This document shows positions 25,085 through 59,310 of a DNA stretch of 64,000 nt, one piece after another; the first letter of the stretch is position 1; the number at the start of each line of letters is the position of its first letter. A program made the position numbers and the translations under genes. The notes under the pieces are model-generated. The model saw only the letters and a program-made list of their open reading frames with translations, had not been told where the DNA came from and searched no databases. The DNA comes from Escherichia coli (GTDB lineage Bacteria > Pseudomonadota > Gammaproteobacteria > Enterobacterales > Enterobacteriaceae), in the NCBI RefSeq assembly GCF_024298765.1, contig NZ_CP101210.1, one strand, 5' to 3'.

Positions 25085-25120
25085 AATAAAAAAGCCCCCG
25101 GAAGGTGATCTTCCGGGGGC
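25085..25120 (-). terminator. his attenuator terminator hairpin
   Basis: gcccccggaag...cttccgggggc stem followed (minus strand) by U-run, between hisL and hisG. Confidence 0.85.
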
Positions 25121-25184
25121 TTTCTCATGCGTTCATGTACCACTGGAAGATCTGAATGTCTTCCAGCACACATCGCCTGAAAGA

Positions 25185-25235
25185 CTAGTCAGGATGATGG
25201 TGATGATGGTGGTGTTTAAATTGAACGCGTGTCAT
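25185..25235 (-). CDS. hisL: his operon leader peptide
   Basis: minus-strand reading atgacacgcgttcaatttaaacaccaccatcatcaccatcatcctgactag = MTRVQFKHHHHHHHPD* (seven consecutive His codons). Confidence 0.95.
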   Translation of the reverse strand: MTRVQFKHHHHHHHPD

Positions 25236-27902: not shown

Positions 27903-28168
27903 AGAAAAATTATTATGACAAGCCTCTCATTCTCTTGTCATTTCCCCCCCATTTAGGCACAATGCGCCGCTGTCAAAAAATGACTAAAAACCGACGTTTC
28001 ATCAGCGTCGGTTATTTTTTGCTTCAAACCAATCATTCATACCAAGAGGCCGGGCTTCGTACCGGATAGATATTTACTAAAAATCGACAGTTGTTGTCGC
28101 TGAGGAATCCAAAAAAATGGGGCAATTTTTTGCTTACGCGACGGTTATCACCGTAAAGGAGAATGACC

Positions 28169-42888: not shown

Positions 42889-43790
42889 GCAGCCCCCTTC
42901 TGAAATATTTCATCGACCATACTTTCAGAGAGGCGTTCTGCAGAGCAGAGGCGAGGCATGCGAACCGGTAAGTGTTCTGCAGCCTGCGTGGTTGACCAGA
43001 TCACCGGATGCTGCTCTTCACTGCACCAGTCTCCCAGCCAGTTAATCGCGTCATGCCACTCGTTATCTGCCTGCTCCCGGCCCTGACCACCAAGCCAGTC
43101 CAGAGTGTTCAGACGCACGGTTGCACTACCGCCACTCTCCTGTGCCATCTGCGTTAATGCTTTATGTCTGAGAATATCCAGTAGCTGGTTAACCTGGCCT
43201 GTTTCGCTCTGACGTATCACATCACCAAACGCGCCCCAGCGAAGCTCTTCAAGTGCCACATAACAACGTCCGGCAGGGGAAAATGACGCATATCGCCCGG
43301 CGCTCCACCATGAGAATATCTGCTCAAGATGTAACTGCGCCCGCTGAACCTGGTCAACACGGTGGAGTTTTTCTTCAAGATGATTCAGTTTATGGTGAAC
43401 CTGATCGGCCAGGGTGAGTAACTGCTCCCGCGTATCTGCGGAATAATGCGCCAGCCTGGCTGTATCACTGACCAGTGAACTGACCCTGTCGTTTACCCGG
43501 GTAATCGCGTAGTTTGTGGTGGCAAGTGACGTTGTCAGCTCCGTCAGCCAGCGCAGGGATGCCTCAACGCCCTGTGCAAGCGAAGCATTGATGGCATTCT
43601 GCCGTGCAGCACCTTCGCCGCTCAGCCCCTCTTTTAACCGCCGGAAGAACGTGCGCTCTCCGGCCGTGCGGATATGCTCCTGTGCAACATCGATACCGTT
43701 TGCGAAATCAACCACAAATTTTTCAGGAAGACAGGTGAGTACCTGACATACCCGGTTATCAGCAATTTGTTGAATAAATGGTGAAGTCAC
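42885..43790 (-). CDS. coiled-coil protein, possible YjcZ-like partner of dynamin-like GTPase
   Basis: 301 aa, helical/coiled-coil character, no enzymatic motif seen; overlapping stop/start junctions with both flanking genes. Confidence 0.5.
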   Translation of the reverse strand: MTSPFIQQIADNRVCQVLTCLPEKFVVDFANGIDVAQEHIRTAGERTFFRRLKEGLSGEGAARQNAINASLAQGVEASLRWLTELTTSLATTNYAITRVNDRVSSLVSDTARLAHYSADTREQLLTLADQVHHKLNHLEEKLHRVDQVQRAQLHLEQIFSWWSAGRYASFSPAGRCYVALEELRWGAFGDVIRQSETGQVNQLLDILRHKALTQMAQESGGSATVRLNTLDWLGGQGREQADNEWHDAINWLGDWCSEEQHPVIWSTTQAAEHLPVRMPRLCSAERLSESMVDEIFQKGAA

Positions 43791-46183
43791 AGCATTGTCT
43801 CCAGTTCTTCCCTTAACGCCTTACTGTCAGTAATGAGCTCAGGAACTCTTTCATTTAACGCCTGAAGACGCCCGGTCAGCCGTTCCTGCGCCTGCTGATC
43901 GCGTTTATGATCTTCAGAGCTCTGAATCAGCGTGTTACGCAGCTGTTCAACTTTCTCCCTGAATGTACAGAAAAAGGCATCGATTTCCTGGCGGACGGGC
44001 TGGTTAATATCCTGCTCAATGGATGCCTGCAGCTCCCCGAAATATGCCCGGGTCAGTGACATCACCTCCTTCCTGACCTTGTTGATATTGATAACACTGC
44101 GGCTCACATCCACGTTATAGTTTTCCCATCCCCATTCTTTGGTGCCAATCCATCCACAAATCTTTCCAATGAAGCTATCCTTCCGACGGCGACGGGTGAC
44201 TGTCTCCGTTCTTTCCTCCATAAGCGCACTCAGATTTGTTTTTACCGCGAGCCGGGTCTGTAACTGACTGACTGCCGGAAAACTGATTTTTACAGTGAAG
44301 CCCTCATCCGCCAGGCGGGCATTGATACGTCCGGCGATGTTTTCTGTCGCATACAGGGCCGTACCACGAAAACCTGTTTCAATCCCGCTGACGATTTTCT
44401 CCAGCTCAGGCCGGAACTGTGCCTCAGCCTCACTGTGCAGGCTGGTCACGGTCGATTCGATTTGCGTCATCAGTTCAAGGGCTTCCCTGCGATTATTTAA
44501 TGTTATCTCGGGGTTTTCCGGATCAAAGACTCGTATCCTGTCATCCTCCCAGCCCGGGTTATTGATACCGGACCATCGATAAATCTTTCCCCATAATCCG
44601 GACCGGGACCTTCGTTGTTCTGTGTCTTCTTCCTCCAGCATTTGCTGTTCTTTGCGTTTACCGGTTCTGAAATAGTCATTCAGTTCCTCTTCCAGTGAGG
44701 TGCAGACCCCCGTGAGTAATTCCCGGGTTCTGGCATCGATCTCCTCCATGGCCATTCTGACATCAGCGGTCACCTGCTCCTGACAGTCCGCGATTTCCCG
44801 GATATCCGCAAGCAGGCTGGTGATATGCGCCTGCAGTGACTGAATGCTTTGCTGTAGCCCCTGATGGCGTAATGACAGATATTCGCTGACATTTTCCGCA
44901 TTCTGCATCAGTTTTGCGGCGGCAGAATCAACCGCCAGTGCCGCCGCTCTGGAATGGGAACTCTGTATGACTTCCGTTATCAGTTGATCGATAAGTGAGC
45001 CTTCCCACAGGTCTGTTGCCCCTTCAGTTGCCAGTTCGCTGTCTTTACAGACGTAATCTTTTTTCATGCGACCGAAAGCTTCCCTGACAAAATCATCGAC
45101 CCAGGCTTCATCAACAGGAAGGGTTCCGTTTTTCCGTAACTCATGAAGCGCACGGTTAGCCAGGTATGCCTGGCGTGAGGATCCGGGATAAACGCGGGAG
45201 GCGGGCAGCACATCGCTGTTCAGCATTGCCGGAACTTTCTGGCGTACGGCATCTGCCCCATCGCCATTGCGGTCTTTCTCATCAAATTTATTGACCAGCA
45301 CAAACAGGCGGCCAACTGATACGTCCGCAATGGCATTAAGCTCTTTACGGACGTCTTCATCCGCTTTTGAGTTCATCTGGGTGTAATCCATCACTGCCAG
45401 AACCGCAGAAGCTTTCTGCAGTTGATCCCGCATCATCACTTCCATCTGCGGCTGGCCGGCTTCATTAGGGCCGGGGGTATCCAGCAGTGTGAGTGTTCCC
45501 TGGCATGCATCCATCCCCACCAGATGGCTGAATTCCACGTCGATCACCGGCAGTTTCTGCACTTCTGCGTATTCATCAAAAGGAAACTCACTCCCCATTG
45601 CCGCAGCAAGACGAACCAGATCGTTTAACGATGCCAGTCCGGTAAAGATTTCCTCCTCCCCGTGGTATTCATTTTTGAGCCAGCCATCATCCGTCAGAAT
45701 ATCCAGCAGTTCACGGGTATCCCCGGTTTGCAGCAGGGTCTGTGCGACTTGCTGTCCTGCCGGGGTGGCGAGTTTTTCCTGCAGTGTGATTAATAAATTG
45801 CGGACAGGCTGAATATGTTCCAGATGGAGGACCGGCTCAGTTTTTCCGGGAACGTGGCGGATGAGTGTCGGTACAGAGGTCATGGGGCGGTTACGGTTAG
45901 GCAGAATTTCCTGCCCCACAATGGCGTTGATGGTGGTTGATTTGCCTGCTTTCATCGTGCCGACAACAGCCAGCACCATCTCCCTGCGGGCGGTTTTGAT
46001 TTGTTCGCCCTCCAGCTCCTCAATTCTTTTCAGCGCTTTCCGTTTATCAAAAAGCAGCCCGTTTTCGTTCTTACTGTCAGATAACACATCCGGCTCATCA
46101 ACCATTTGCCGGAGCAGATTGATATTCAGTTGCAAAAGCCGGTCGGCTTCATCACAAAGCAGGGCGATGTTCTTTTCGTGCAT
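43787..46183 (-). CDS. bacterial dynamin-like GTPase (CrfC/YjdA/LeoA-like)
   Basis: 798 aa; G1 GTMKAGKST, G3 DTPG, G4 NKFD in N-terminal third; long helical stalk C-terminally; RBS aggaagg upstream. Confidence 0.8.
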   Translation of the reverse strand: MHEKNIALLCDEADRLLQLNINLLRQMVDEPDVLSDSKNENGLLFDKRKALKRIEELEGEQIKTARREMVLAVVGTMKAGKSTTINAIVGQEILPNRNRPMTSVPTLIRHVPGKTEPVLHLEHIQPVRNLLITLQEKLATPAGQQVAQTLLQTGDTRELLDILTDDGWLKNEYHGEEEIFTGLASLNDLVRLAAAMGSEFPFDEYAEVQKLPVIDVEFSHLVGMDACQGTLTLLDTPGPNEAGQPQMEVMMRDQLQKASAVLAVMDYTQMNSKADEDVRKELNAIADVSVGRLFVLVNKFDEKDRNGDGADAVRQKVPAMLNSDVLPASRVYPGSSRQAYLANRALHELRKNGTLPVDEAWVDDFVREAFGRMKKDYVCKDSELATEGATDLWEGSLIDQLITEVIQSSHSRAAALAVDSAAAKLMQNAENVSEYLSLRHQGLQQSIQSLQAHITSLLADIREIADCQEQVTADVRMAMEEIDARTRELLTGVCTSLEEELNDYFRTGKRKEQQMLEEEDTEQRRSRSGLWGKIYRWSGINNPGWEDDRIRVFDPENPEITLNNRREALELMTQIESTVTSLHSEAEAQFRPELEKIVSGIETGFRGTALYATENIAGRINARLADEGFTVKISFPAVSQLQTRLAVKTNLSALMEERTETVTRRRRKDSFIGKICGWIGTKEWGWENYNVDVSRSVININKVRKEVMSLTRAYFGELQASIEQDINQPVRQEIDAFFCTFREKVEQLRNTLIQSSEDHKRDQQAQERLTGRLQALNERVPELITDSKALREELETML

Positions 46184-46279: not shown

Positions 46280-46400
46280 GATGTATTCTATTAACTTGAG
46301 AAACACAACGCAAGGGGACAACCCGGGTATGGCTGCGTTTGCATAGTGTTTTCATGGAGTTAAAAATCTGTAACAACAGCCTGGTACATCACCACCGGGT

Positions 46401-47312
46401 TCAGAAGAAAATCCAGTTCCATACCACGCGGGCAACAGAGACCACCGAGTCACGGACGGCGCGCAGAACCGTGCGTGCAACAGAGGCAATGCAGACGCTC
46501 TCCGCCGTGTCAAATATCCGGTCCACCGCACCGGTAAACTGTTCACGGGCCTGAGACCGGACAGACTCCGTGCGCAGCTCGTCCTGCAGGCGGGTCATCA
46601 GGGGACTGGCGGCATGGTCGGGAAGTGCTGTCATGAGCGCACTGACCAGCGTATCCAGTTCCCAGCCGGTGCGGGCCGATACGGCAACAACCCGATGTAC
46701 GGGCCGGAACAGACGGAATACCGCCTCCGTTTTTTCGCGAATGTTCTGTGCCTGTGCGGGAGAAGGCTGAATACCGGCCATATCCCATTCATGGCAGGGC
46801 TCCGTTTTATCGGCCTGCATCACCACAAACAGTACCCGCTGATGTCCCCGGTGCAGGATGTGTCGCCAGAAATACTCATCCACAGACAGGGCACGGTCAT
46901 CGGCTTTAATCAGCCACAGTACCAGGTCCAGTTCGAGCAGAATGTCACGGTACAGGGCTTCATACTCTGCATCCCTGTCCCGGCTCTCGCCCACCCCGGG
47001 CAGGTCAGTGATAACCATGCTGTGACCATGGCCATTCAGACGGAAGCGCTGCACTTCCCGGGGGCCGGCGTGAACATCACTGACCGGGGTGACCTCCCCC
47101 TGAAACAGCGCATTACAGAGTGAGGATTTACCGGCCCCGCTTTTACCCATAATGCCAGGCACGGGTTCGTGACTGGTGAGTTTGCGCAGATGTTCCAGGA
47201 TGTGACGGGAAAGTGAGTAAGGCAGGGAGGAGAGCGGTTTTTCAATTGCCTCAATGGCATCAGACGGATTCATACATGTATTCCCGGTGAAAAAAGACAA
47301 AACCCCGCGCAC
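46401..47312 (-). CDS. YeeP/YfjP/YkfA-family GTPase, apparently intact
   Basis: P-loop GIMGKSGAGKSSL, DLPG, VMQADK motifs; possible start at internal MNPSDAIE (47273). Confidence 0.8.
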   Translation of the reverse strand: MRGVLSFFTGNTCMNPSDAIEAIEKPLSSLPYSLSRHILEHLRKLTSHEPVPGIMGKSGAGKSSLCNALFQGEVTPVSDVHAGPREVQRFRLNGHGHSMVITDLPGVGESRDRDAEYEALYRDILLELDLVLWLIKADDRALSVDEYFWRHILHRGHQRVLFVVMQADKTEPCHEWDMAGIQPSPAQAQNIREKTEAVFRLFRPVHRVVAVSARTGWELDTLVSALMTALPDHAASPLMTRLQDELRTESVRSQAREQFTGAVDRIFDTAESVCIASVARTVLRAVRDSVVSVARVVWNWIFF

Positions 47313-47356: not shown

Positions 47357-48520
47357 TTATCTGGAATCGATTTGGCTGTTCTGCCTGGTTGCCACCAAAT
47401 CATGGTACGCCTGCTCAATCATTTCATTCAGCAGTTTTTTTGGGAGGACACCACGACTTCGGGCAATACTTTCAAGCTGTTTGTGGATTTTTCCGGACAG
47501 TTTCAGAGGGACGGAACCATCAGCACGTTCATCACGCCTTTTTTGTTGCTCCCGGGCACTTTTCAGCTCATCAAGAAGAATCGCTTTATGCTGAATCCTG
47601 GGGGCCTGGAAGGAGACCTGCGTAAACTTCGCTCTGTTCCGTCTGGGATTACTTTCCAGTAAAAACTGTACCTGTTGCTCATTCCAGCCCTCCCAGTTAT
47701 CAAACGTGGCGCAGGCAAACCAGTATTTCTGCTCCGGGGTAAGGGGATTCAGCGGGGTTCCCACACACCGGACCTGCATGGCGTTCCATAACCAGTCACA
47801 CTGTTCACTGTCCCTGCTGTCCACCCACGAAAAGGGGGAGGGGTAATCATTGTTTATGCTGGCCCATTCAGAGAATACTGAGTTGATAATCGTCCTCGTA
47901 GCCTCTGGTCCGGATTTCAGCAGGTAACTGGAGCAGAACCATATAATTTCACGGTAGATTTTATCCGGATGCACGGTGCGCATCGGCTTTTCTCTGGGAC
48001 CGGCAATCTTCGGTTGCGATGGAAACCCCGTGGCAAACCGCAGATGTTCCGGGGGCATTCCTGAACGTTTTTCAGGAATGGGTGTGAGTCCTGCGTTTCT
48101 GGTCTTTTCCGCTTGTCCGGTATTGCCTCCGGCCGGAGTGTTGTCGGGAGTATCTTCCGGAGGCGAGGTGTTTTCATTAGTTGGGGGAACAACAGCAGAA
48201 CTGTCCATCTCCGGAATGGGTTGAGGGGCATAATCACTGTGGTAGCCAGGGGAAAGCGTTAAGTCCCGAAGGATGACATCAGGTTCCGGGCAGTGAGTGC
48301 CACCGGGAGTGAACGGGAGTTGTTGCTTTTGGGAGAAAAATGTATTGTGAATGCGGGTATACAGCTGGAACAGAAAAAAATAAGATGCCCGTGGTTCTTT
48401 TTTTAACCACTGTGTATATTCCTCTATGGCACCGAGCTGTTGTTTGTGCCGTTTTACAGCATCGATATACGGACAGCTGGTGCAGATATCATCCAGTTCC
48501 TTTCCCACAATACACCTCAC
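47357..48520 (-). CDS. hypothetical island protein with low-complexity Pro/Thr-rich linker
   Basis: 387-aa ORF; central PPTNENTSPPEDTPDNTPAGGNTGQ region; C-terminal helical segment; no recognised catalytic motif. Confidence 0.45.
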   Translation of the reverse strand: MRCIVGKELDDICTSCPYIDAVKRHKQQLGAIEEYTQWLKKEPRASYFFLFQLYTRIHNTFFSQKQQLPFTPGGTHCPEPDVILRDLTLSPGYHSDYAPQPIPEMDSSAVVPPTNENTSPPEDTPDNTPAGGNTGQAEKTRNAGLTPIPEKRSGMPPEHLRFATGFPSQPKIAGPREKPMRTVHPDKIYREIIWFCSSYLLKSGPEATRTIINSVFSEWASINNDYPSPFSWVDSRDSEQCDWLWNAMQVRCVGTPLNPLTPEQKYWFACATFDNWEGWNEQQVQFLLESNPRRNRAKFTQVSFQAPRIQHKAILLDELKSAREQQKRRDERADGSVPLKLSGKIHKQLESIARSRGVLPKKLLNEMIEQAYHDLVATRQNSQIDSR

Positions 48521-49984
48521 CTGCTTTTCTCACATTTGCAGATTTTAAAAAAGCAAACAAAAACCTCCGTACATGATGTACAGAACAATCTACCAGGTAG
48601 TGGCGTCAGAAAACCTCCGGGCCGCCTGCACTTTCCGGAATGCGCCGGTTATGAAAAACCGGAAATTCAGTCTCTGTTGTAAGATGTACCCTCTGATACT
48701 ACGTTTTCTCTGTGTATTTAACTCACTGTATTTATTGTCTTTTTAAGCTTGACTGATATTCTCCGGTCATAGTGTGCCGGATATACATCCCGTAAACTTC
48801 TCATTTTTATATAAAAATACTTGCACTCTCTTCAGCGCATCTGTCTCCTTTAAGTAAAAAATGTTTTCACGTATTGCTGTAAATTCATTTTAAATCAGTA
48901 TATTACCTTGATATTGCTGTCTCCTGGTTTGATGCGTAATCGTTCTGCCTTTCTGGATGATTCTGGTGCTTCCGGGTGCATTCTCCTCTGCACATGCAAC
49001 AGTTCGTCATCGCCACGCTCCCAAAAAGCATATAAAAACGAATCGAATTTGATATTTTTTTCAATCGTTTTTCATAGGAATTTCGTAGGGTATTCTCCGC
49101 TATAACCTCCATATTTGCTGTCTTTTTCTTCATAAATCGTATGCAATATAGCCTGTCTGTCAAGACCTCTTCTCTGCTGTTGAGGAGACGATCTCATTTT
49201 TGGTCTTTTCCGGGAGAGAGGCTGTCAGATGAGCGAGCCGGATATACTGTCAGAGGTACACCCCGTAGCAGACCTGTGCTCCCATTTCCGCGATCCGGAA
49301 CCAACAACACCCTACGGTTAATACCATTTGAAGCGTCAGGTACTGCAGGAAGTTCCCCCCTGCGCGGACATCGGTTCCTGCCGACATCTCACAATACGGC
49401 CAGACTGTCATGCAGTAACACCCGCATGCGGTCTGCGGTTTTAAGCGCACTCTCCCGTTTTCAGTGCACCGATAATGCGTCATAGTAAGTCTGGGGGAAG
49501 TTACGGAATGCCTGTTAAGTGGTGCCGTGGGTGGAGACAGCTTACTTTTCTACAGCAACTGCAGTCATTCAGGATGATCAGGAGATATTCTGTCAATGTC
49601 ACGATCCTGCCATTTTCGTACCCGCTAAGATACTTCCGTTACTGATGCTGTCCGCTTTTCACCATTTCATCCTCACTGACAGGCGTTGCGTTTTGGGTCA
49701 TCACCACAGCTTTACGTTTCTCTTTTAACCGGTAACGCTCTCCTTTGATATTCAGCGTGGTTGAGTGATGCAGCAGTCAATCCAGGAGCGCTGTTGTCCG
49801 GCAACCACCATATCAACTTCTTCCCGGGTGTGGCGGAGAGGTGGTATCCTGGCTGAGTTTCGAAGCGAACCGTTCTTTTTGACGGGCGCATTTTACGTCC
49901 GGGCTGAATGTAGTAACGCGGCATGGAACGTCGGCCCGTATACCATTGCCTTAATCTCCGCAAAGATAACCTCGTCATTCCGGA

Positions 49985-49992
49985 CATTCTCT
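49985..49992. repeat. 8-bp target-site duplication (left) of IS66-family insertion
   Basis: cattctct identical to 52430-52437. Confidence 0.85.
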
Positions 49993-50075
49993 GTAAGCGT
50001 CGTCTGAGTACCGTCTGGTCCCGAATCCAGGATCCTGTAACTTAAGCACCCACTTATTTTGCAGGTGGACACCTC

Positions 50076-50459
50076 ATGCGCGCTAAAGAAAGACTTCCCC
50101 GGAAACACTATTCCCCTGAATTCAAAATGGAACTGGTCAGGCTGGCTCTTGAAGAAGAAGGCAGTATTGCCGCACTGGCCCGGAAACATGACGTCAATGA
50201 TAACCTGCTCTTTAAATGGATAAGGCTCTGGCAGCGTGAAGGGCGGGTCTGTCGGCCCCGAAAAAACTCATCGTCGCTTCCTGCCCTGATACCCGTGCAG
50301 CTTCAGGCGGGCTCTTCTCTCCCAACCTTCGAACTACCATCCTGCTCTCCTCCCGCTACCTGCCACATAAAATGTCGGGGAGGAGAAATAACACTGACTC
50401 ATCCCTCTGCTGAACTCATGAGCACTGTCCTGCGCGAACTGATGCGGGGGCCTGTATGA
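50076..50459 (+). CDS. IS66 family accessory protein (orf1/TnpA)
   Basis: 127 aa; HTH-like N-terminus; first ORF of IS66 element. Confidence 0.8.
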   Translation: MRAKERLPRKHYSPEFKMELVRLALEEEGSIAALARKHDVNDNLLFKWIRLWQREGRVCRPRKNSSSLPALIPVQLQAGSSLPTFELPSCSPPATCHIKCRGGEITLTHPSAELMSTVLRELMRGPV

Positions 50460-50803
50460 TAAATCTTCCCGCAGGCACAAAAATCTGGCTGGTTGCCGGT
50501 ATCACCGATATGCGCAACGGCTTCAATGGCCTCGCCGCAAAGGTGCAGACCGCGCTGAAAGATGACCCGATGTCCGGCCACGTCTTCATCTTCCGGGGAC
50601 GCAGCGGCAGTCAGGTAAAACTGCTCTGGTCCACCGGCGATGGTCTGTGCCTGCTGACAAAGCGACTGGAACGTGGTCGCTTCGCCTGGCCCTCAGCCCG
50701 CGATGGCAAAGTGTTCCTGACGCCGGCGCAACTGGCGATGCTGATGGAAGGTATCGACTGGCGACAGCCAAAGCGGTTACTGACATCCCTGACCATGTTG
50801 TAG
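50456..50803 (+). CDS. IS66 family accessory protein (orf2/TnpB)
   Basis: 115 aa; overlapping start with orf1 stop; typical IS66 organisation. Confidence 0.8.
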   Translation: MINLPAGTKIWLVAGITDMRNGFNGLAAKVQTALKDDPMSGHVFIFRGRSGSQVKLLWSTGDGLCLLTKRLERGRFAWPSARDGKVFLTPAQLAMLMEGIDWRQPKRLLTSLTML

Positions 50804-50852
50804 CGCTCTTTATCCTGGTTGTCGCAGAATAAGCCTGGTAAAATACAGGCTT

Positions 50853-52388
50853 ATGAACGACACCTCTTCTGACGACATCCTTCTGCTGAAACAGCGCCTG
50901 GCCGAACAGGAAGCGTTGATCCACGCCCTGCAGGAAAAGCTGAGCAACCGGGAACGCGAAATAGACCATCTGCAGGCGCAACTGGATAAGCTGCGCCGGA
51001 TGAACTTCGGCAGTCGTTCCGAAAAGGTATCCCGCCGTATCGCGCAAATGGAAGCTGACCTGAACCTGCTGCAGCAGGAAAGCGATACGCTGACCGGCCG
51101 GGTGGATGACCCGGCAGTGCAGCGCCCGCTGCGTCAGACCCGCACCCGCAAACCGTTCCCTGAGTCACTCCCACGGGATGAGAAGCGGCTGCTGCCGACT
51201 GAGCCGTGTTGCCCGGAGTGCGGTGGTTCGCTGAGTTACCTGGGTGAGGATGCCGCCGAACAGCTGGAGCTGATGCGCAGCGCCTTCCGGGTTATCCGGA
51301 CAGTCCGTGAAAAGCATGCCTGCCGTCGGTGCGATCGCATCGTTCAGGCCCCGGCTCCTTCGCGCCCCATCGAACGGGGGATCGCCGGACCGGGGCTGCT
51401 GGCCCGAGTGCTGACCTCAAAGTATGCAGAGCACACACCGCTGTATCGCCAGTCGGAGATCTATGCCCGCCAGGGTGTAGTGTTGAGTCGTTCTGTACTG
51501 TCGGGCTGGGTGGATGCGTGTTGTCGTCTGCTGGCACCGCTGGATGAAGCCCTTCAGCACTATGTCCTGACCGACGGCAAACTCCATGCTGACGATACGC
51601 CTGTCCCGGTGCTGTTGCCAGGCAATAAGAAGACGAAGACCGGGCGCTTATGGACGTACGTTCGAGACGACCGCAACGCCGGATCAGCGCTGGCCCCCGC
51701 AGTGTGGTTCGCTTACAGCCCGGACAGAAAAGGTATCCACCCTCAGACCCATCTTGCAGGCTTCAGTGGCGTACTGCAGGCTGATGCCTACGCCGGGTTC
51801 AACGAGCTCTACCGCGACGGCCATATAAAGGAAGCCGCGTGCTGGGCCCATGCCCGCCGAAAAATCCACGATGTTCACGTCCGTACCCCGTCAGCCCTGA
51901 CGGAGGAGGCGCTGAAACGGATCGGCGAGCTGTATGCCATCGAGTCGGAGCTCAGAGGTAAAAGAGCAGAGGAACGGCAGGCAGTCCGGCACCAAAAAGT
52001 GCTGCCGCTGCTGGCGTCACTGGAGGGGTGGCTGCGGGAGAAACAGAAAACCCTCTCAAGGCACTCAGAACTGGCGAAGGCGTTCGGGTATGCGCTGAAC
52101 CAGTGGCCGGCGCTGACCCGCTATGCAGAAGATGGCTGGGTGGAGGTGGATAATAACATTGCCGAAAACGCCCTACGACTGGTCAGTCTGGGGAGAAAAA
52201 ACTGGCTGTTCTTCGGCTCGGATCATGGTGGTGAGCGCGGTGCGTCACTGTACAGTCTTATCGGGACGTGCAAATTAAACGGCGTGGATCCGGAACGCTA
52301 TCTGCATCATGTACTTGATGTCATCGCCGACTGGCCTGTGAACCGGGTGGGTGCTCTGCTCCCGTGGCGGGTTACTCTGCCCGCCTGA
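50853..52388 (+). CDS. IS66 family transposase (orf3/TnpC)
   Basis: 511 aa; N-terminal leucine zipper, CPECGG...CRRCD zinc motif, DDE region. Confidence 0.9.
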   Translation: MNDTSSDDILLLKQRLAEQEALIHALQEKLSNREREIDHLQAQLDKLRRMNFGSRSEKVSRRIAQMEADLNLLQQESDTLTGRVDDPAVQRPLRQTRTRKPFPESLPRDEKRLLPTEPCCPECGGSLSYLGEDAAEQLELMRSAFRVIRTVREKHACRRCDRIVQAPAPSRPIERGIAGPGLLARVLTSKYAEHTPLYRQSEIYARQGVVLSRSVLSGWVDACCRLLAPLDEALQHYVLTDGKLHADDTPVPVLLPGNKKTKTGRLWTYVRDDRNAGSALAPAVWFAYSPDRKGIHPQTHLAGFSGVLQADAYAGFNELYRDGHIKEAACWAHARRKIHDVHVRTPSALTEEALKRIGELYAIESELRGKRAEERQAVRHQKVLPLLASLEGWLREKQKTLSRHSELAKAFGYALNQWPALTRYAEDGWVEVDNNIAENALRLVSLGRKNWLFFGSDHGGERGASLYSLIGTCKLNGVDPERYLHHVLDVIADWPVNRVGALLPWRVTLPA

Positions 52389-52429
52389 CCAGCTTCACTT
52401 CGTCAATACGGTTCTCACTGCACGCTTAC

Positions 52430-52437
52430 CATTCTCT
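52430..52437. repeat. 8-bp target-site duplication (right) of IS66-family insertion
   Basis: cattctct. Confidence 0.85.
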
Positions 52438-53346
52438 GCCAGGCATATGTCGATGTAATCCATAAACGATTTCAGCTTACCCCTTTTGTGGCCAGTCTTT
52501 CTGGCTGGCGGTTCAGGGGATGTTTTCTGGTTATCGTGTACCACAAAGCAGGGATATTGCCCCGATAGTCACATTTCAGATTGATCGCGGTCTGAAGATG
52601 TGGCACTGAGGTAACGTGCTGGTGTCACTGGTATTGCTGAAGTTATGGTTTTTCGGGGTCAGGTGAGCCTGTTGTGTGTATGCTTTTTGTTCAGGTCAGA
52701 GGGGGACTGTGTGGACAGCGGCTTTTGTCTCCGGGCATTCACGCCTGAACGATGAATGCGATTTTCAGCAATATTTGTCTTTGTGACACTCTCTGGTTGA
52801 GAAGCTAATGCGCGCCCCTGTTTCCACAGAGAATGAGGCTTGCCATCAGCCGAAACATCAGTATTCCACGCCATACAGACGGCGCCTGACCATGTGCTGA
52901 TGCAGGTAAAATGTTTCACTACAACTGTTCGGGTTGCTATGCAACGAAACAGCGATTCTCACGATCTTTAACTGCAACGTTTTTCCGCCTGAAAGCTGAC
53001 TGCCTCCTGCTGAGGTGGGAGGCTATGATTCAGTGCGTTTATAGTCTCCGGGGTATGCATGTACCGGAGCATACCATTTCTGGTGGATAACAAGCCGGCA
53101 CATTCAGACTGCAGTGAAGATGGAGGCACCTGGTTGTGAAGAACGTTTCTGCCCGTGGCTGCTTCGCATCATCAATGGTATTCATACCCGCTCAGAAATG
53201 ACCGGGTGCTGAAGCCCTCCGTTATCGCGCAGTATAATGACGTATATGATCTGTGGACGAGTGAGCGGCGTGCCTGATGTACGCCGCTATTACTGTATTT
53301 TACCACAGGGCTGGTTTTCTGCTGCCAGCCCTGTGGTTCTCAGACA

Positions 53347-53964
53347 TCAACTGTGAGCGGCATCAACCGATGTACGGTATGCCATAAGCACGTACTGATC
53401 CATCAGATTTGTCAGTGGTTCACTCTGACCCTGACGTGCAATGATCCATTGCTCCAGATCTTTTTCTGATTTGTGTTTCAGGTTTTTCGTCCAGTCGTCA
53501 AGGCTGTTTCCGGTCATTAAGTCAAGCCAGCAGAGCCAGACCAGTTTGAGACGTAACTCCGTGCCGCCAAACTGACGGAAGAGGCTGATCAGTTTGTTTG
53601 CCAGAGAATGTTGCTTCAGGCGCTCACATTCAGACAGCAGGATCCCTTCCAGCATCGGATGATGAACCAGCAGGTGTTCGCTGGTGCATAAATTCACCAC
53701 CAGATCATCATCCAGGGACGGGGAGCTCCGTTTGTCCGGACCATAAATCAGCCGGTGCAGACTCTGGGGAACGATGGCAATCTCCGGTTTTTCGCCATTG
53801 AATGACACCCACCCGGGCGTCAGATTATGGAAATAGTAGATATTCGGATGACACACGCCCCATGATACGGCGTGCCGGGTGAAGCCGGTCAGCCATTTCT
53901 GGTAGTTTTCATGGAGCAGCTCGTAACGGGTCTGATACTGTTGTTTCATTTTCATATTCCTCAC
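53347..53964 (-). CDS. hypothetical prophage-island protein
   Basis: 205-aa ORF co-oriented with and downstream of alpA; no motif recognised. Confidence 0.4.
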   Translation of the reverse strand: MRNMKMKQQYQTRYELLHENYQKWLTGFTRHAVSWGVCHPNIYYFHNLTPGWVSFNGEKPEIAIVPQSLHRLIYGPDKRSSPSLDDDLVVNLCTSEHLLVHHPMLEGILLSECERLKQHSLANKLISLFRQFGGTELRLKLVWLCWLDLMTGNSLDDWTKNLKHKSEKDLEQWIIARQGQSEPLTNLMDQYVLMAYRTSVDAAHS

Positions 53965-54249: not shown

Positions 54250-54413
54250 GAGAATGTTCCTCCGGATGTTGTTAAACCAGCCGGTGTGGTCATGAAAACA
54301 GCGCGCCACCTTCACCGGCATAACAACCGGGGAGAAACGTAAAAAATAATCGGGAATGTGGCTGTCCGGAGATAAACGGGGGGATTGCGATGGCAGAGCC
54401 GTAGCGGAATCCC

Positions 54414-54425
54414 GGGGGGGGGGGG
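54414..54425. repeat. G12 homopolymer tract
   Basis: 12 consecutive G read directly, about 165 bp upstream of alpA start. Confidence 0.9.
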
Positions 54426-55376
54426 TTGCGAAAAGATGCTTCCGCACGCACGCGCGATAAAGAGGGGATAGTTTTCGTGAGGACAGGGAGAGAAGCAGGC
54501 GTTCTGATAATTGCAGAGTTGTTTTCGGAGGTGGTTACAGTGAGTCAGCCCGTTCCTGGCGAGCAGGAGACTGATATCACCGATGGGATAAGGTTGTCTG
54601 ATTGGTATTATAAATATAAGAAGTCATCAGAGAGTAACGTAAAGGATTTGCCAGAATAACCTAAGAGAGTAAATCTCTCCGGTAACAGAGCGCTGTGAAG
54701 CATTCTGTATCAGAGTGCAGATACATGAACGCTGATGCGTAAAATCAGCAGTGACACGCCAGCTCCCCCTATGCCCATTCCTGTATAAGACATGAACTGA
54801 GTGTATTAATGCTTCTGCCCTGAGACTGAGCCGGTGAGTGAGGGGCTGAGAAATCCCTCTTGACACAGCTCTAACCAGAAATACTTCCCCGGTTGTTGCG
54901 GTGCGTCCGGATCCCCGATAACGGAACACTAAGGCTGTATTGCGGGACACCGGGTAAGTAGCAGCCCGTAAGGCGTTCTGTCAACGCCAGAAAAAATGAT
55001 TTCCCACACGCGTTATAGACTCACTCCTGTGGACCTGGAAGCCCGTAACTCTGCGGTTGCCCACTGACTGACGGAACTGACCGCAAATTTTACGAGTGCG
55101 TGCTGGGCTTCAGTCTGGTCACCTGAGCGTTCGGTAACGGAGGCGCGGGCGGTAATAGGCTGATTTTCAGGTATTACCGGCTTACAGCGTGTGGTTGATA
55201 TTGAGGGGCTGTGAGTTTCGCGTATTTGTCAGAAACCCAGACGAGTTTTCCTGTATGGGACGAAATAAGGCAGCGGCAATACCTGGAAAAATTTAATATG
55301 GTATGAAGGAGAACCTGTCGGTTACGCTTAATATACCCGGTACACTGTCAGCTCAGGGGATACATGAACCGTTATC

Positions 55377-55580
55377 TCACCAGCTACACAGTATATACAC
55401 ACTGACGCTGACAGTAGTCAGCAGGACCACAATAATCAGTGCCAGCAGTATGGTAACGATACGGTCTGTATTCCGGTAATAGCCGAAGGGGTCGACAGAA
55501 CCACAATACGGGCAACACACTGTATTATGAGTAATCGCGTTTCCACAGTCCCTGCACTTCTTTTTGCGTATCACCATCAC
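55377..55580 (-). CDS. small zinc-ribbon membrane protein
   Basis: 67 aa; CRDCG...CCPYCG followed by C-terminal TM helix IVTILLALIIVVLLTTVSVSVYIL. Confidence 0.45.
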   Translation of the reverse strand: MMVIRKKKCRDCGNAITHNTVCCPYCGSVDPFGYYRNTDRIVTILLALIIVVLLTTVSVSVYILCSW

Positions 55581-57685: not shown

Positions 57686-59310
57686 ATGGGCAACGCAATG
57701 CACTCTCTTAAGACACTTCTACAGTTACCTTGCGGATGGCGATGCAGTCGACAAATTATTAGCTCTGACGGTATAACCCTCCATCTCCACGGAAAACGCA
57801 AAACAGCACAATGTCCTGAATGCTTTAAGCGTAGCGACTCTGTTCATAGTTGTCGTCGGCGCCGGATACAGCATCTACCCTGCTCAGGGCAGACGCTATG
57901 GCTTGTATTTTCCGTCCGCCACTGGTACTGCCGTAACCCGGCTTGTTCACGTAAAATTTTTGCCGAGTCGCTTGCTCCCTTCGCCAGTTCACACCAGCAG
58001 TCTTCACAGGCGTTACAAAATTAACAACGTCAACTGGGATTAATAGCTGGAGGTGAGGCTGGAAAACGGGCTGCAACGGCAGTGGGTCTCCGTTGCAGTG
58101 CTGATACTCTTCTTCGCAGGCTTATCAATACCCCGGAGACGAAACAGTCAGGCGCGCCTCATGTCGGTATTGATGAGTGGGCGTGGCATCGGGGCCACTG
58201 CTGCGGTATGTTAATAGTCAATCCTGATACTCACCGTCCCCTCGTCCTGCTTCCCGGCCGTGATCAGCGTACGCTGGCGACCTGGTTCAGAAAATATCCG
58301 GAAATACAGGTTGTCTCGCGTGATCGCAGTGGAGTCTATGCGACAGCAGCACGTGAAGGTGCACCTCAGGCCAGACAGGTGGCCGATCGATGGCACCTGC
58401 TAAAAAATATTGGTGATGAGCCTGAACGAATGATGTACAGACATATGCCTCTGATACGTCTTGTTGTCAGAGAGTTATCACTGAAGAAATCACCTGAGCC
58501 AGAAATATCTGTGCCTGTAGCATCGCTCCGTCGTCTGGAACGCCTTAAACAGCACATCCGCAAAAAACGGCATCAGCGTTGGACAGAGGTTATGGCCCTG
58601 CATAACAAGGGATGTAGTTTCAGGGAAATATCCCGTATTACAGGCCTGTCGCGAGTGACAGTCAGTCGCTGGGTGAGTTCAGGAACATTCCCTGAAATGT
58701 CAACCAGGCCTCCAAAGCGAGGGCTTCTGGACCCATGGAGGGAGTGGTTAAAAGAGCAACGAGAATGTGGTAATTATAACTCCGGCCGGATATGGCGGGA
58801 AATGGTGGCCAGGGGGGTTACAGGCAGTGAAACCATCGTCAGGGATGCTGTTGCCAAATGGCATAAAGGCTGGATCCCACCGGTTACTACTGCCGCAAGA
58901 CTTCCTTCAGTGTCACGGGTAAGCCGCTGGTTGATGCCCTGGAGAATAATCAGGGGTGAAGAAAATTATGCTTTCCGATTTATTAGTCTGATGTGTGAAA
59001 AAGAACCGGAGTTGAAAATAGCGCAGCAACTGGTACTCGAGTTCTACCGTATTCTGAAAACCTAAAATAAATCACAGCTAAGCAGCTGGTTCACTCGGGT
59101 CCACGAAAGCGGCTCAGCAGAACTTCGGTGCGTAGCTGCGGGGATGGAAGCTGATGCTGCGGCTATATGTGAGGCAATCAGCAGTCGCTGGAGTACTGGT
59201 GTTGTCGAAGGTCATGTAAATCGCCTGAAGGTGCTGATACGCCAGATGTATGGTCGAGCCGGACTTGAACTACTTAGGCGGAGGGTAATGAGTCCACTGG
59301 CATGAAAATC
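57686..59310 (+). mobile_element. ISL3-family transposase gene, disrupted (at least three frames)
   Basis: N-terminal zinc-ribbon ORF 57686-58024, DDE-like ORF 58082-59065 (GIDEWAWHRGH..., DRWHLLKN), C-terminal ...WSTGVVEGHVNRLKVLIRQMYGRAGLELLRRRVM in a third frame. Confidence 0.6.

Follow-up and report, generated by a model that had tools for sequence, protein, structure and literature searches.

ORF content of the stretch and the IS66-family insertion

The window, by which we mean the whole 64-kb stretch of Escherichia coli DNA analysed here, is the CP4-44/GI-cobU island locus of this species. The subject of this work is the part of the window at positions 48521-53346, which lies between the genes for a 387-aa and a 205-aa protein and had been described as about 2.4 kb of island DNA without a credible open reading frame (ORF), split by an insertion sequence (IS) of the IS66 family (the original prediction). 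From left to right it consists of an orphan segment (segment A), the first part of an IS21-family remnant, the IS66-family element, the second part of the remnant and a second orphan segment (segment B).

The only long ORFs in 48521-53346 are the three IS66 genes; the remaining ORFs have 40-115 codons and lie on mixed strands. For further analysis the IS was removed by joining 48521-49992 to 52438-53346, retaining one copy of the target duplication, which gave an IS-less sequence of 2,381 bp. Its longest start-to-stop ORF was 114 aa. Dinucleotide shuffles of the same sequence (n = 300) gave a mean longest ORF of 116.7 (standard deviation 24.9), and 49% of them equalled or exceeded the real value. 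Sliding windows of 2,381 bp over the 64 kb (n = 309) never had a longest ORF below 122 aa (5th percentile 171, median 339). The IS-less stretch thus has no more ORF content than random sequence would have, and no other portion of the window is as poor in ORFs, so the absence of a credible ORF was borne out. Outside segment A, the annotation by the Prokaryotic Genome Annotation Pipeline (PGAP) of the stretch not belonging to IS66 consists of IS21 pseudogene fragments alone.

The IS66-family insertion sequence (2,437 bp, 49993-52429, plus strand) was identified from its ORFs, from the PGAP names given to identical sequence and from its termini. Both features that define the family were present. 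The tnpA (50076-50459, 127 aa), tnpB (50456-50803, 115 aa) and tnpC (50853-52388, 511 aa) ORFs are consecutive on the plus strand, and terminal inverted repeats (GTAAGCG from 49993, its complement ending at 52429) are flanked by an 8-bp target-site duplication, with CATTCTCT at 49985-49992 on the left and CATTCTCT at 52430-52437 on the right. Duplications of 8 bp are generated by the IS66 family. The uninterrupted single-copy site was found by blastn in other E. coli, with 100% identity across the joined 2,381 bp; about 400 genomes carry at least 80% of the joined IS-less sequence at one place, and the exact IS66 left junction was present in 296 of 5,426 genomes. IS66 is a simple insertion and the most recent event at the site. 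It does split gene-free DNA, as had been proposed, and the boundaries originally given for it were correct to within the target duplication.

IS66 lies in a remnant of an IS21-family element

The DNA on both sides of IS66 is a minus-strand remnant of an IS21-family element, recognised from Pfam, from alignment to a complete IS21 and from PGAP pseudogenes. Part 1 (49591-49992) retains the right terminus intact (TGTCAATGTCACGAT from 49591) apart from a deletion of 12 bp. It also holds the last 190 nt or so of istB, which are followed, after a deletion junction at about 49796, by an istA fragment. This fragment is resumed across the IS66 insertion in part 2 (52438-52521). It corresponds approximately to istA residues 33-125 and crosses the IS66 site to about 52521, its conceptual translation reading PARKTGHKRGKLKSFMDYIDICLAENV and RNDEVIFAEIKAM on the two sides of the site. 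Homology ends about 116 nt short of the istA start, and consequently the left end of the element is missing. In total the remnant amounts to 486 bp, about 20% of the IS-less DNA.

The six-frame Pfam search of the IS-less stretch gave one match, to positions 209-238 of the 238 of the IstB_IS21 profile (the last 30 residues, E = 3.3e-6), and no other coding match. Distant blastn aligned positions 1088-1556 of the joined sequence with IS21 in two pieces, which span 1.9 kb of the complete element. PGAP calls the remnant pieces pseudogenes, named 'AAA family ATPase' and 'IS21 family transposase/hypothetical'. Compared with the IS21 (istA/istB) of plasmid p2270-1 (NZ_CP095511.1), nucleotide identity was 87-90% over what is retained, namely the 3' end of istB, the 5' part of istA and, as right terminus, TGTCAA.G.CACGAT. 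However, the remnant keeps only 486 bp of about 2.1 kb and has neither a left inverted repeat nor an intact ORF, and it is therefore unable to transpose. Homology to istA and istB places it in the IS21 family, but only the right terminus (49591) was found and approximately 1.4 kb have been lost internally, and for this reason it was filed as a remnant and not as an element.

The remnant is a small hotspot of IS insertion and deletion (49941-49992 in the window), which involves IS66, IS100, IS150 and IS26; the IS66, IS100 and IS150 insertions are independent of one another and, like the IS26 truncation, lie in the remnant or at its edge. IS100 lies in it 45-50 bp from the IS66 site in sequence type 131 (ST131) and in CFT073, IS150 lies in it in ATCC 11775, and IS26 truncates the remnant region in AVS0151. 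The L007/L003 island lineage has a different deletion endpoint, at 49943. The remnant is common to about 2,000 E. coli genomes, and the hotspot inside it could serve as a lineage marker.

Nested insertion sequences also occur in the cryptic P4-type islands of K-12, where IS911A (insN) of CP4-6 is split by IS30A and yoeA of CP4-44 is split by IS2. In these cases, as here, a more recent IS has interrupted the remnant of an IS or of a gene within this island family, and what is left is pseudogene fragments and DNA without genes. The differences are that other insertion sequences are involved there, whereas here an IS21 remnant is split by IS66; that the older element here has lost its left end as well as about 1.4 kb internally; and that the remnant here is common to about 2,000 genomes.

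A promoter-like sequence, GTGACA-17-GATCAT, was observed at 49574-49602 on the minus strand. Its -35 hexamer lies in the IS21 terminus and it points outward into segment A. Outward-facing -35 hexamers have been described for IS21 ends, which this match would fit.

Extent and distribution of segments A and B

Outside the IS21 remnant, segments A and B make up 1.9 kb of the IS-less DNA. Segment A (48521-49590, 1,070 bp) is orphan non-coding DNA that separates the 387-aa gene start from the IS21 terminus, and its middle is AT-rich (GC content 0.38-0.43). It is carried by 2,092 of the 5,426 complete E. coli genomes and only rarely by plasmids, and in most of these carrier genomes PGAP annotates nothing in it. 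Three allele classes were distinguished (approximately 99%, 94.6% and 87.5% identity). Neither a 22-mer of the segment A core nor the adjacent 387-aa gene was found among 100,044 species, each searched in one representative genome. Three direct copies of a motif ending in CTGTCA were observed at 49239-49252, 49397-49410 and 49582-49595, the third being the true IS21 right terminus.

Segment B (52522-53346) extends from the truncated IS21 to the stop codon of the 205-aa gene. Its left part, B1 (52522-53039), which adjoins the truncated IS21 end, is lineage-specific orphan DNA that is absent or replaced in two other island lineages. B1 contains a 71-codon ORF (MAWNT...) called by PGAP in some genomes, and showed no coding homology by tblastn against 72,556 plasmids or by tblastx against the K-12 islands. 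The right part, B2 (53040-53346, minus strand), was delimited by comparison with another island type, in which it is about 70% conserved; the indels are not multiples of three and no frame is preserved. B2 is the putative 3' tail of the 205-aa gene. Approximately 10 nt downstream of the stop codon it contains a 13-bp hairpin (53306-53337, minus strand) without a U-tract, with a free energy of -26.6 kcal/mol (z = -5.5; none of 200 shuffles reached this stability). This hairpin is likely to be a transcript end or stabiliser, and B2 is most plausibly the tail of the alpA/205-aa transcription unit, closing in a strong hairpin.

Segments A and B show no coding homology

The homology searches were consistent in finding no protein-coding relative of segments A and B. 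A tblastn search of their six frames against the plasmids gave near-identical copies of the same DNA and nothing else. Likewise, tblastx of both segments against K-12 CP4-57, CP4-6, the left part of CP4-44, an Ag43-type island and the rest of the window gave nothing significant except at 53040-53242, where conservation is at the DNA level. For the six frames of the segment A core, HMMER retrieved 29 matches among 1.84 billion cluster representatives, all of them short ORFs (43-190 aa, at least 65% identity) called on the same DNA in all frames. The positive control therefore works and no true protein family is related to this DNA. A word-indexed search (5.8-billion-protein index; 3,892-residue six-frame query with X at stops) was set aside because its positive control failed: it missed identical ORFs of 71-114 aa present in that collection, whereas HMMER with a similar query succeeded.

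Two apparent leads were rejected. For a 174-codon frame of segment A there seemed to be longer 'homologues' (156-213 aa), but these proved to be gene calls on the same DNA, made either with TGA read as Trp or with frameshifts on error-rich assemblies, and do not form a protein family. One ORF cluster carries the name 'transposase', which comes from the IS21 istA fragment and not from segment A.

Differences between alleles did not have the pattern of coding DNA. In ORF76 of segment A there was 1 synonymous against 6 non-synonymous substitutions, spread over the codon positions as 4/4/2 (small numbers), and the other segment A frames behaved similarly; the neighbouring 205-aa gene has a dN/dS of 0.26. 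From the empty homology searches and the even distribution of substitutions over codon positions, segments A and B are not coding-like, living or dead. No internal repeats of A or B occur elsewhere in the 64-kb window, and neither segment has iteron-like or origin-of-transfer-like (oriT-like) repeat architecture beyond short, chance-level repeats.

The suggestion of heavily decayed genes in the original prediction thus holds for the 486 bp of istA/istB debris, which had not been recognised at the time, and not for the other 1.9 kb, in which tblastx against CP4-type islands revealed no degraded coding sequence. As the 1.9 kb gave no such match, the stretch is not merely a string of recognisable degraded coding sequences.

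No counterpart of IsrC and no known RNA family in the stretch

Non-coding RNA (ncRNA) and regulatory content had been put forward as the other possibility for the stretch, by analogy with the small RNA (sRNA) encoded in K-12 CP4-44. The two loci are comparable, since both belong to the same chromosomal island locus and carry a yeeP-type GTPase gene with 96% identity, but flu stands beside isrC in K-12, where this island has dynamin, RdcB and patatin genes. K-12 isrC, encoding IsrC (IS102), lies between yeeP and flu, on the opposite side of the GTPase gene from the stretch studied here, and in a blastn comparison of the K-12 yeeP-isrC-flu region with the window yeeP alone matched, with no isrC homologue. 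The analogy therefore does not transfer.

The Rfam covariance-model search that had been proposed as a check was also run. At the gathering score, Rfam 15 gave no match in the window except the His operon leader (25086-25209, minus strand, 131.7 bits) and the sRNA STnc240 (27948-28022, plus strand, 68.2 bits), both of them ordinary chromosomal features outside the island. Lowering the threshold to E ≤ 10 gave nothing credible in 48300-53500. In sliding-window folding the mean z-score was -0.44, with a few windows between -2.5 and -3.6. With no Rfam match and only modest z-scores, nothing supports an RNA gene in the stretch.

Probable decayed junction DNA between two island modules

The interpretation starts from what was observed directly: the anatomy, the identities of the insertion sequences, the empty site and the lack of coding or Rfam homology. 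Together these make it likely that the stretch is decayed, IS-battered junction DNA of a GI-cobU/CP4-44-type island, which probably includes the promoter and leader of the 387-aa gene. We similarly regard it as probable that the stretch is the decayed boundary of two island modules and not a gene-like unit. Within it, segment A is most likely the upstream regulatory region, with promoter and leader, of the 387-aa gene and of the GTPase and dynamin genes.

We infer the order of events from the nesting of the elements and from shared junctions. An IS21-family element would have inserted beside segment A and would then have lost approximately 1.4 kb internally, its left end and some of the adjoining island DNA. 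The remnant would next have spread with the island through many E. coli lineages, and the IS66-family element would have inserted into the istA fragment in this lineage, generating the 8-bp duplication.

The gene-free 2.4 kb is real but ordinary. Nothing in it is new in kind, the IS fragments being already present in the RefSeq annotation and nested insertion sequences being typical of this island family. The gap in the annotation is accounted for as nested IS debris and orphan intergenic DNA.

Several observations weigh against decay as the explanation of segment A. The segment is nearly full length in 2,088 of 2,094 records, and it is retained in a lineage in which the downstream 387-aa gene has been deleted. 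The segment A core (48633-49226, minus strand) is the least-diverged part in the comparison with L007, the most diverged allele class. It is a candidate for a regulatory region, or for an untranslated transcript, of the 387-aa gene. Divergence from L007 was 4.4% in the core, compared to 16% in the left part of segment A, 21% in the middle part, 7% in the right part and 13-16% in the adjacent IS21 pseudogene, which has the same deletion junction. The core is thus about 3-fold less diverged than the pseudogene (Fisher p = 1e-7), which simple neutral decay does not predict. In addition, the core is bracketed on the minus strand by a promoter-like and a terminator-like site. The regulatory role proposed for segment A is deduced from its position and from consensus matches.

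The promoter-like site (49136-49163, minus strand) is a sigma-70-like match found by consensus scan, TTGACA-16-TACGAT (10/12), of which both hexamers are kept in the diverged alleles. The terminator-like site (48547-48585, minus strand) consists of a 9-bp hairpin followed by a U-rich tail; it precedes the start codon of the 387-aa gene by 27-65 nt. The hairpin is conserved across alleles and has one compensatory pair (U.G to A-U) in the L007 allele. Promoter and terminator consensus matches were no more numerous in the region than in shuffled sequence.

The low divergence of the core from L007, in a comparison in which the synonymous sites of the 205-aa gene differ by 24%, could reflect constraint. 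However, compared to ST131 the core differed by 1.5%, the IS21 remnant by 0.6% and the 387-aa gene by 1.7%. Since the core is no better conserved than the remnant in this second comparison, the pattern is equally compatible with the mosaic recombination typical of islands.

Alternative explanations

The alternative that survives best is that the segment A core (~48550-49130, minus strand) is a functional island-encoded ncRNA or a long regulatory leader. Transcription would start at TTGACA-16-TACGAT and end, or be attenuated, at the hairpin with its U-tract, controlling the 387-aa gene and the GTPase/dynamin operon. The lower divergence of the core than of the flanking pseudogene and segment A flanks in the L007 comparison is in keeping with this, as are the conservation of the promoter hexamers and the terminator hairpin with its compensatory pair, the absence of a coding signature in any frame, fold z-scores of -3.0 to -3.6 at 48700-48900 on the minus strand, and the retention of segment A where the downstream gene has been lost. 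Against these points, there is no Rfam match, the promoter and terminator matches do not exceed those of shuffles, and in the closer ST131 comparison the core is no better conserved than the pseudogene, so that mosaic recombination accounts for the pattern equally well. RNAalifold on four alleles gave a covariation term of +0.25, which is practically zero, with 1 of 165 pairs compensatory, in alleles only 1.5-4.4% apart that give the analysis almost no power; the cross-species scans were empty, so that the genomes searched yielded no diverged copies for a covariation analysis. No transcript data were found, and the sole paper that mentions the locus puts an NsrR chromatin immunoprecipitation (ChIP) peak inside the neighbouring gene (PMC5320621). 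On balance we consider a functional RNA or leader of this kind unlikely.

A more specific form of this proposal seems quite improbable to us: that the core (~49130-48550, minus strand) would be an E. coli-specific island long non-coding RNA or leader with its own promoter and an intrinsic terminator or attenuator, gating the 387-aa, GTPase and dynamin cargo genes. If it were true, about 39% of complete E. coli genomes would carry such an RNA, which Rfam does not contain. The one point of some interest in this stretch is that a regulatory RNA may be transcribed from the 600-bp core, the better-conserved DNA upstream of the 387-aa gene.

It is also doubtful, and we would give it little credence, that segments A and B are what is left of one or several protein genes, either decayed or too lineage-specific to have a detectable homologue. 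Examples would be the 174-codon minus-strand frame of segment A, which is interrupted by just two stops (TGA), and the MAWNT ORF of B1. Annotation pipelines including PGAP do call small ORFs in some genomes (CFT073 c2513; WP_001327829.1), in clusters of 83-289 members, and other genes of this part of the island are visibly decaying. However, HMMER yielded only ORFs on the same DNA for every frame, the tblastx-type searches were empty and the six-frame Pfam scan found IstB only. Both TGA stops are common to all lineages, and the L007 allele adds indels of 43 nt and 2 nt to the frame. The even spread of substitutions over codon positions and their synonymous to non-synonymous ratio in ORF76 argue in the same direction, and the longest ORF matches random expectation.

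Finally, 49239-49590 is very unlikely to be further IS21-family end debris with terminus-like repeats from earlier adjacent insertions: IS21-family ends do carry multiple transposase-binding repeats, the last of the three CTGTCA copies (at 49239, 49397 and 49582) is the true terminus and the first two share further similarity (TGTCA..GTA.CACCC), but TGTCA is all that they have in common with those IS21 and IS100 ends that were examined, the interval has no IS homology by blastn or tblastn, and motifs so short may arise by chance.

Island setting and neighbouring genes

The sequence is 100% identical to several RefSeq chromosomes, O157:H16 Santai among them. The gene run of the window includes hisL at 25086 and sbcB, dacD, sbmC, yeeA and tmaR, followed by yeeW-cbtA-cbeA-yeeT-yeeS and by antirestriction and DUF932 genes. 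Around the stretch the order on the minus strand is an AlpA-type helix-turn-helix gene, the 205-aa gene (53347-53964), the stretch itself, the 387-aa gene (47357-48520) and the GTPase gene. The GTPase gene is of the yeeP type, and its segment matching K-12 yeeP by blastn is 46398-46953. Beyond it, on the same strand, dynamin, RdcB and patatin genes occupy the place of flu. These genes (dynamin-family, RdcB-family and patatin-like phospholipase by PGAP name; 43787-46183 and leftwards, minus strand) substitute Ag43 (flu) of K-12 CP4-44, and the block resembles a cargo module of the defence type.

GI-cobU of uropathogenic E. coli CFT073 is a 44-kb island with an iron transport system (PMC3573123). 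It shares segment A, the IS21 remnant, segment B and the 205-aa and 390-aa genes with the window in identical order, and the ORF c2513 is located in its segment A. The differences are that the remnant is split by IS100 in CFT073 and by IS66 here, and that the neighbouring cargo is an fbp-type iron transporter there and the GTPase/dynamin block here. A paper on neaT mentions GI-cobU, but neaT belongs to a different island.

An NsrR ChIP-seq peak in CFT073 has been listed as 'c2513/c2514' (PMC5320621). It was ruled out as a site in segment A, as its position (2350649 of NC_004431.1) is about 200 bp inside the PGAP 390-aa gene, which is the homologue of the 387-aa gene of the window. In the same study c2514 was reported to be down-regulated 0.41-fold upon nitrate treatment (PMC5320621), and hence at least one carrier expresses the downstream gene.

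At the equivalent position a second island type likewise lacks ORFs over about 1.2 kb, in DNA of unrelated sequence. Within the window, another region of approximately 1.1 kb (roughly 54250-55380) is left empty by PGAP. It contains, as the next gene upstream of the stretch and its neighbours, an unannotated Hha/YmoA-family pseudogene (54990-55121, plus strand) with an in-frame stop and a frameshift, showing 60% identity over 45 aa to an intact 49-aa gene of a related island. Both the gap in the second island type and this pseudogene are what one would expect if this island part is decaying generally.

The island seems to lack its integrase end. At about 57686-59305, PGAP flags a transposase of the ISL3 family that has an internal stop, together with a fragment of a gamma-glutamyltransferase, and the matching RefSeq record has a further IS66 transposase fragment, the end of which overlaps the right end of the window.

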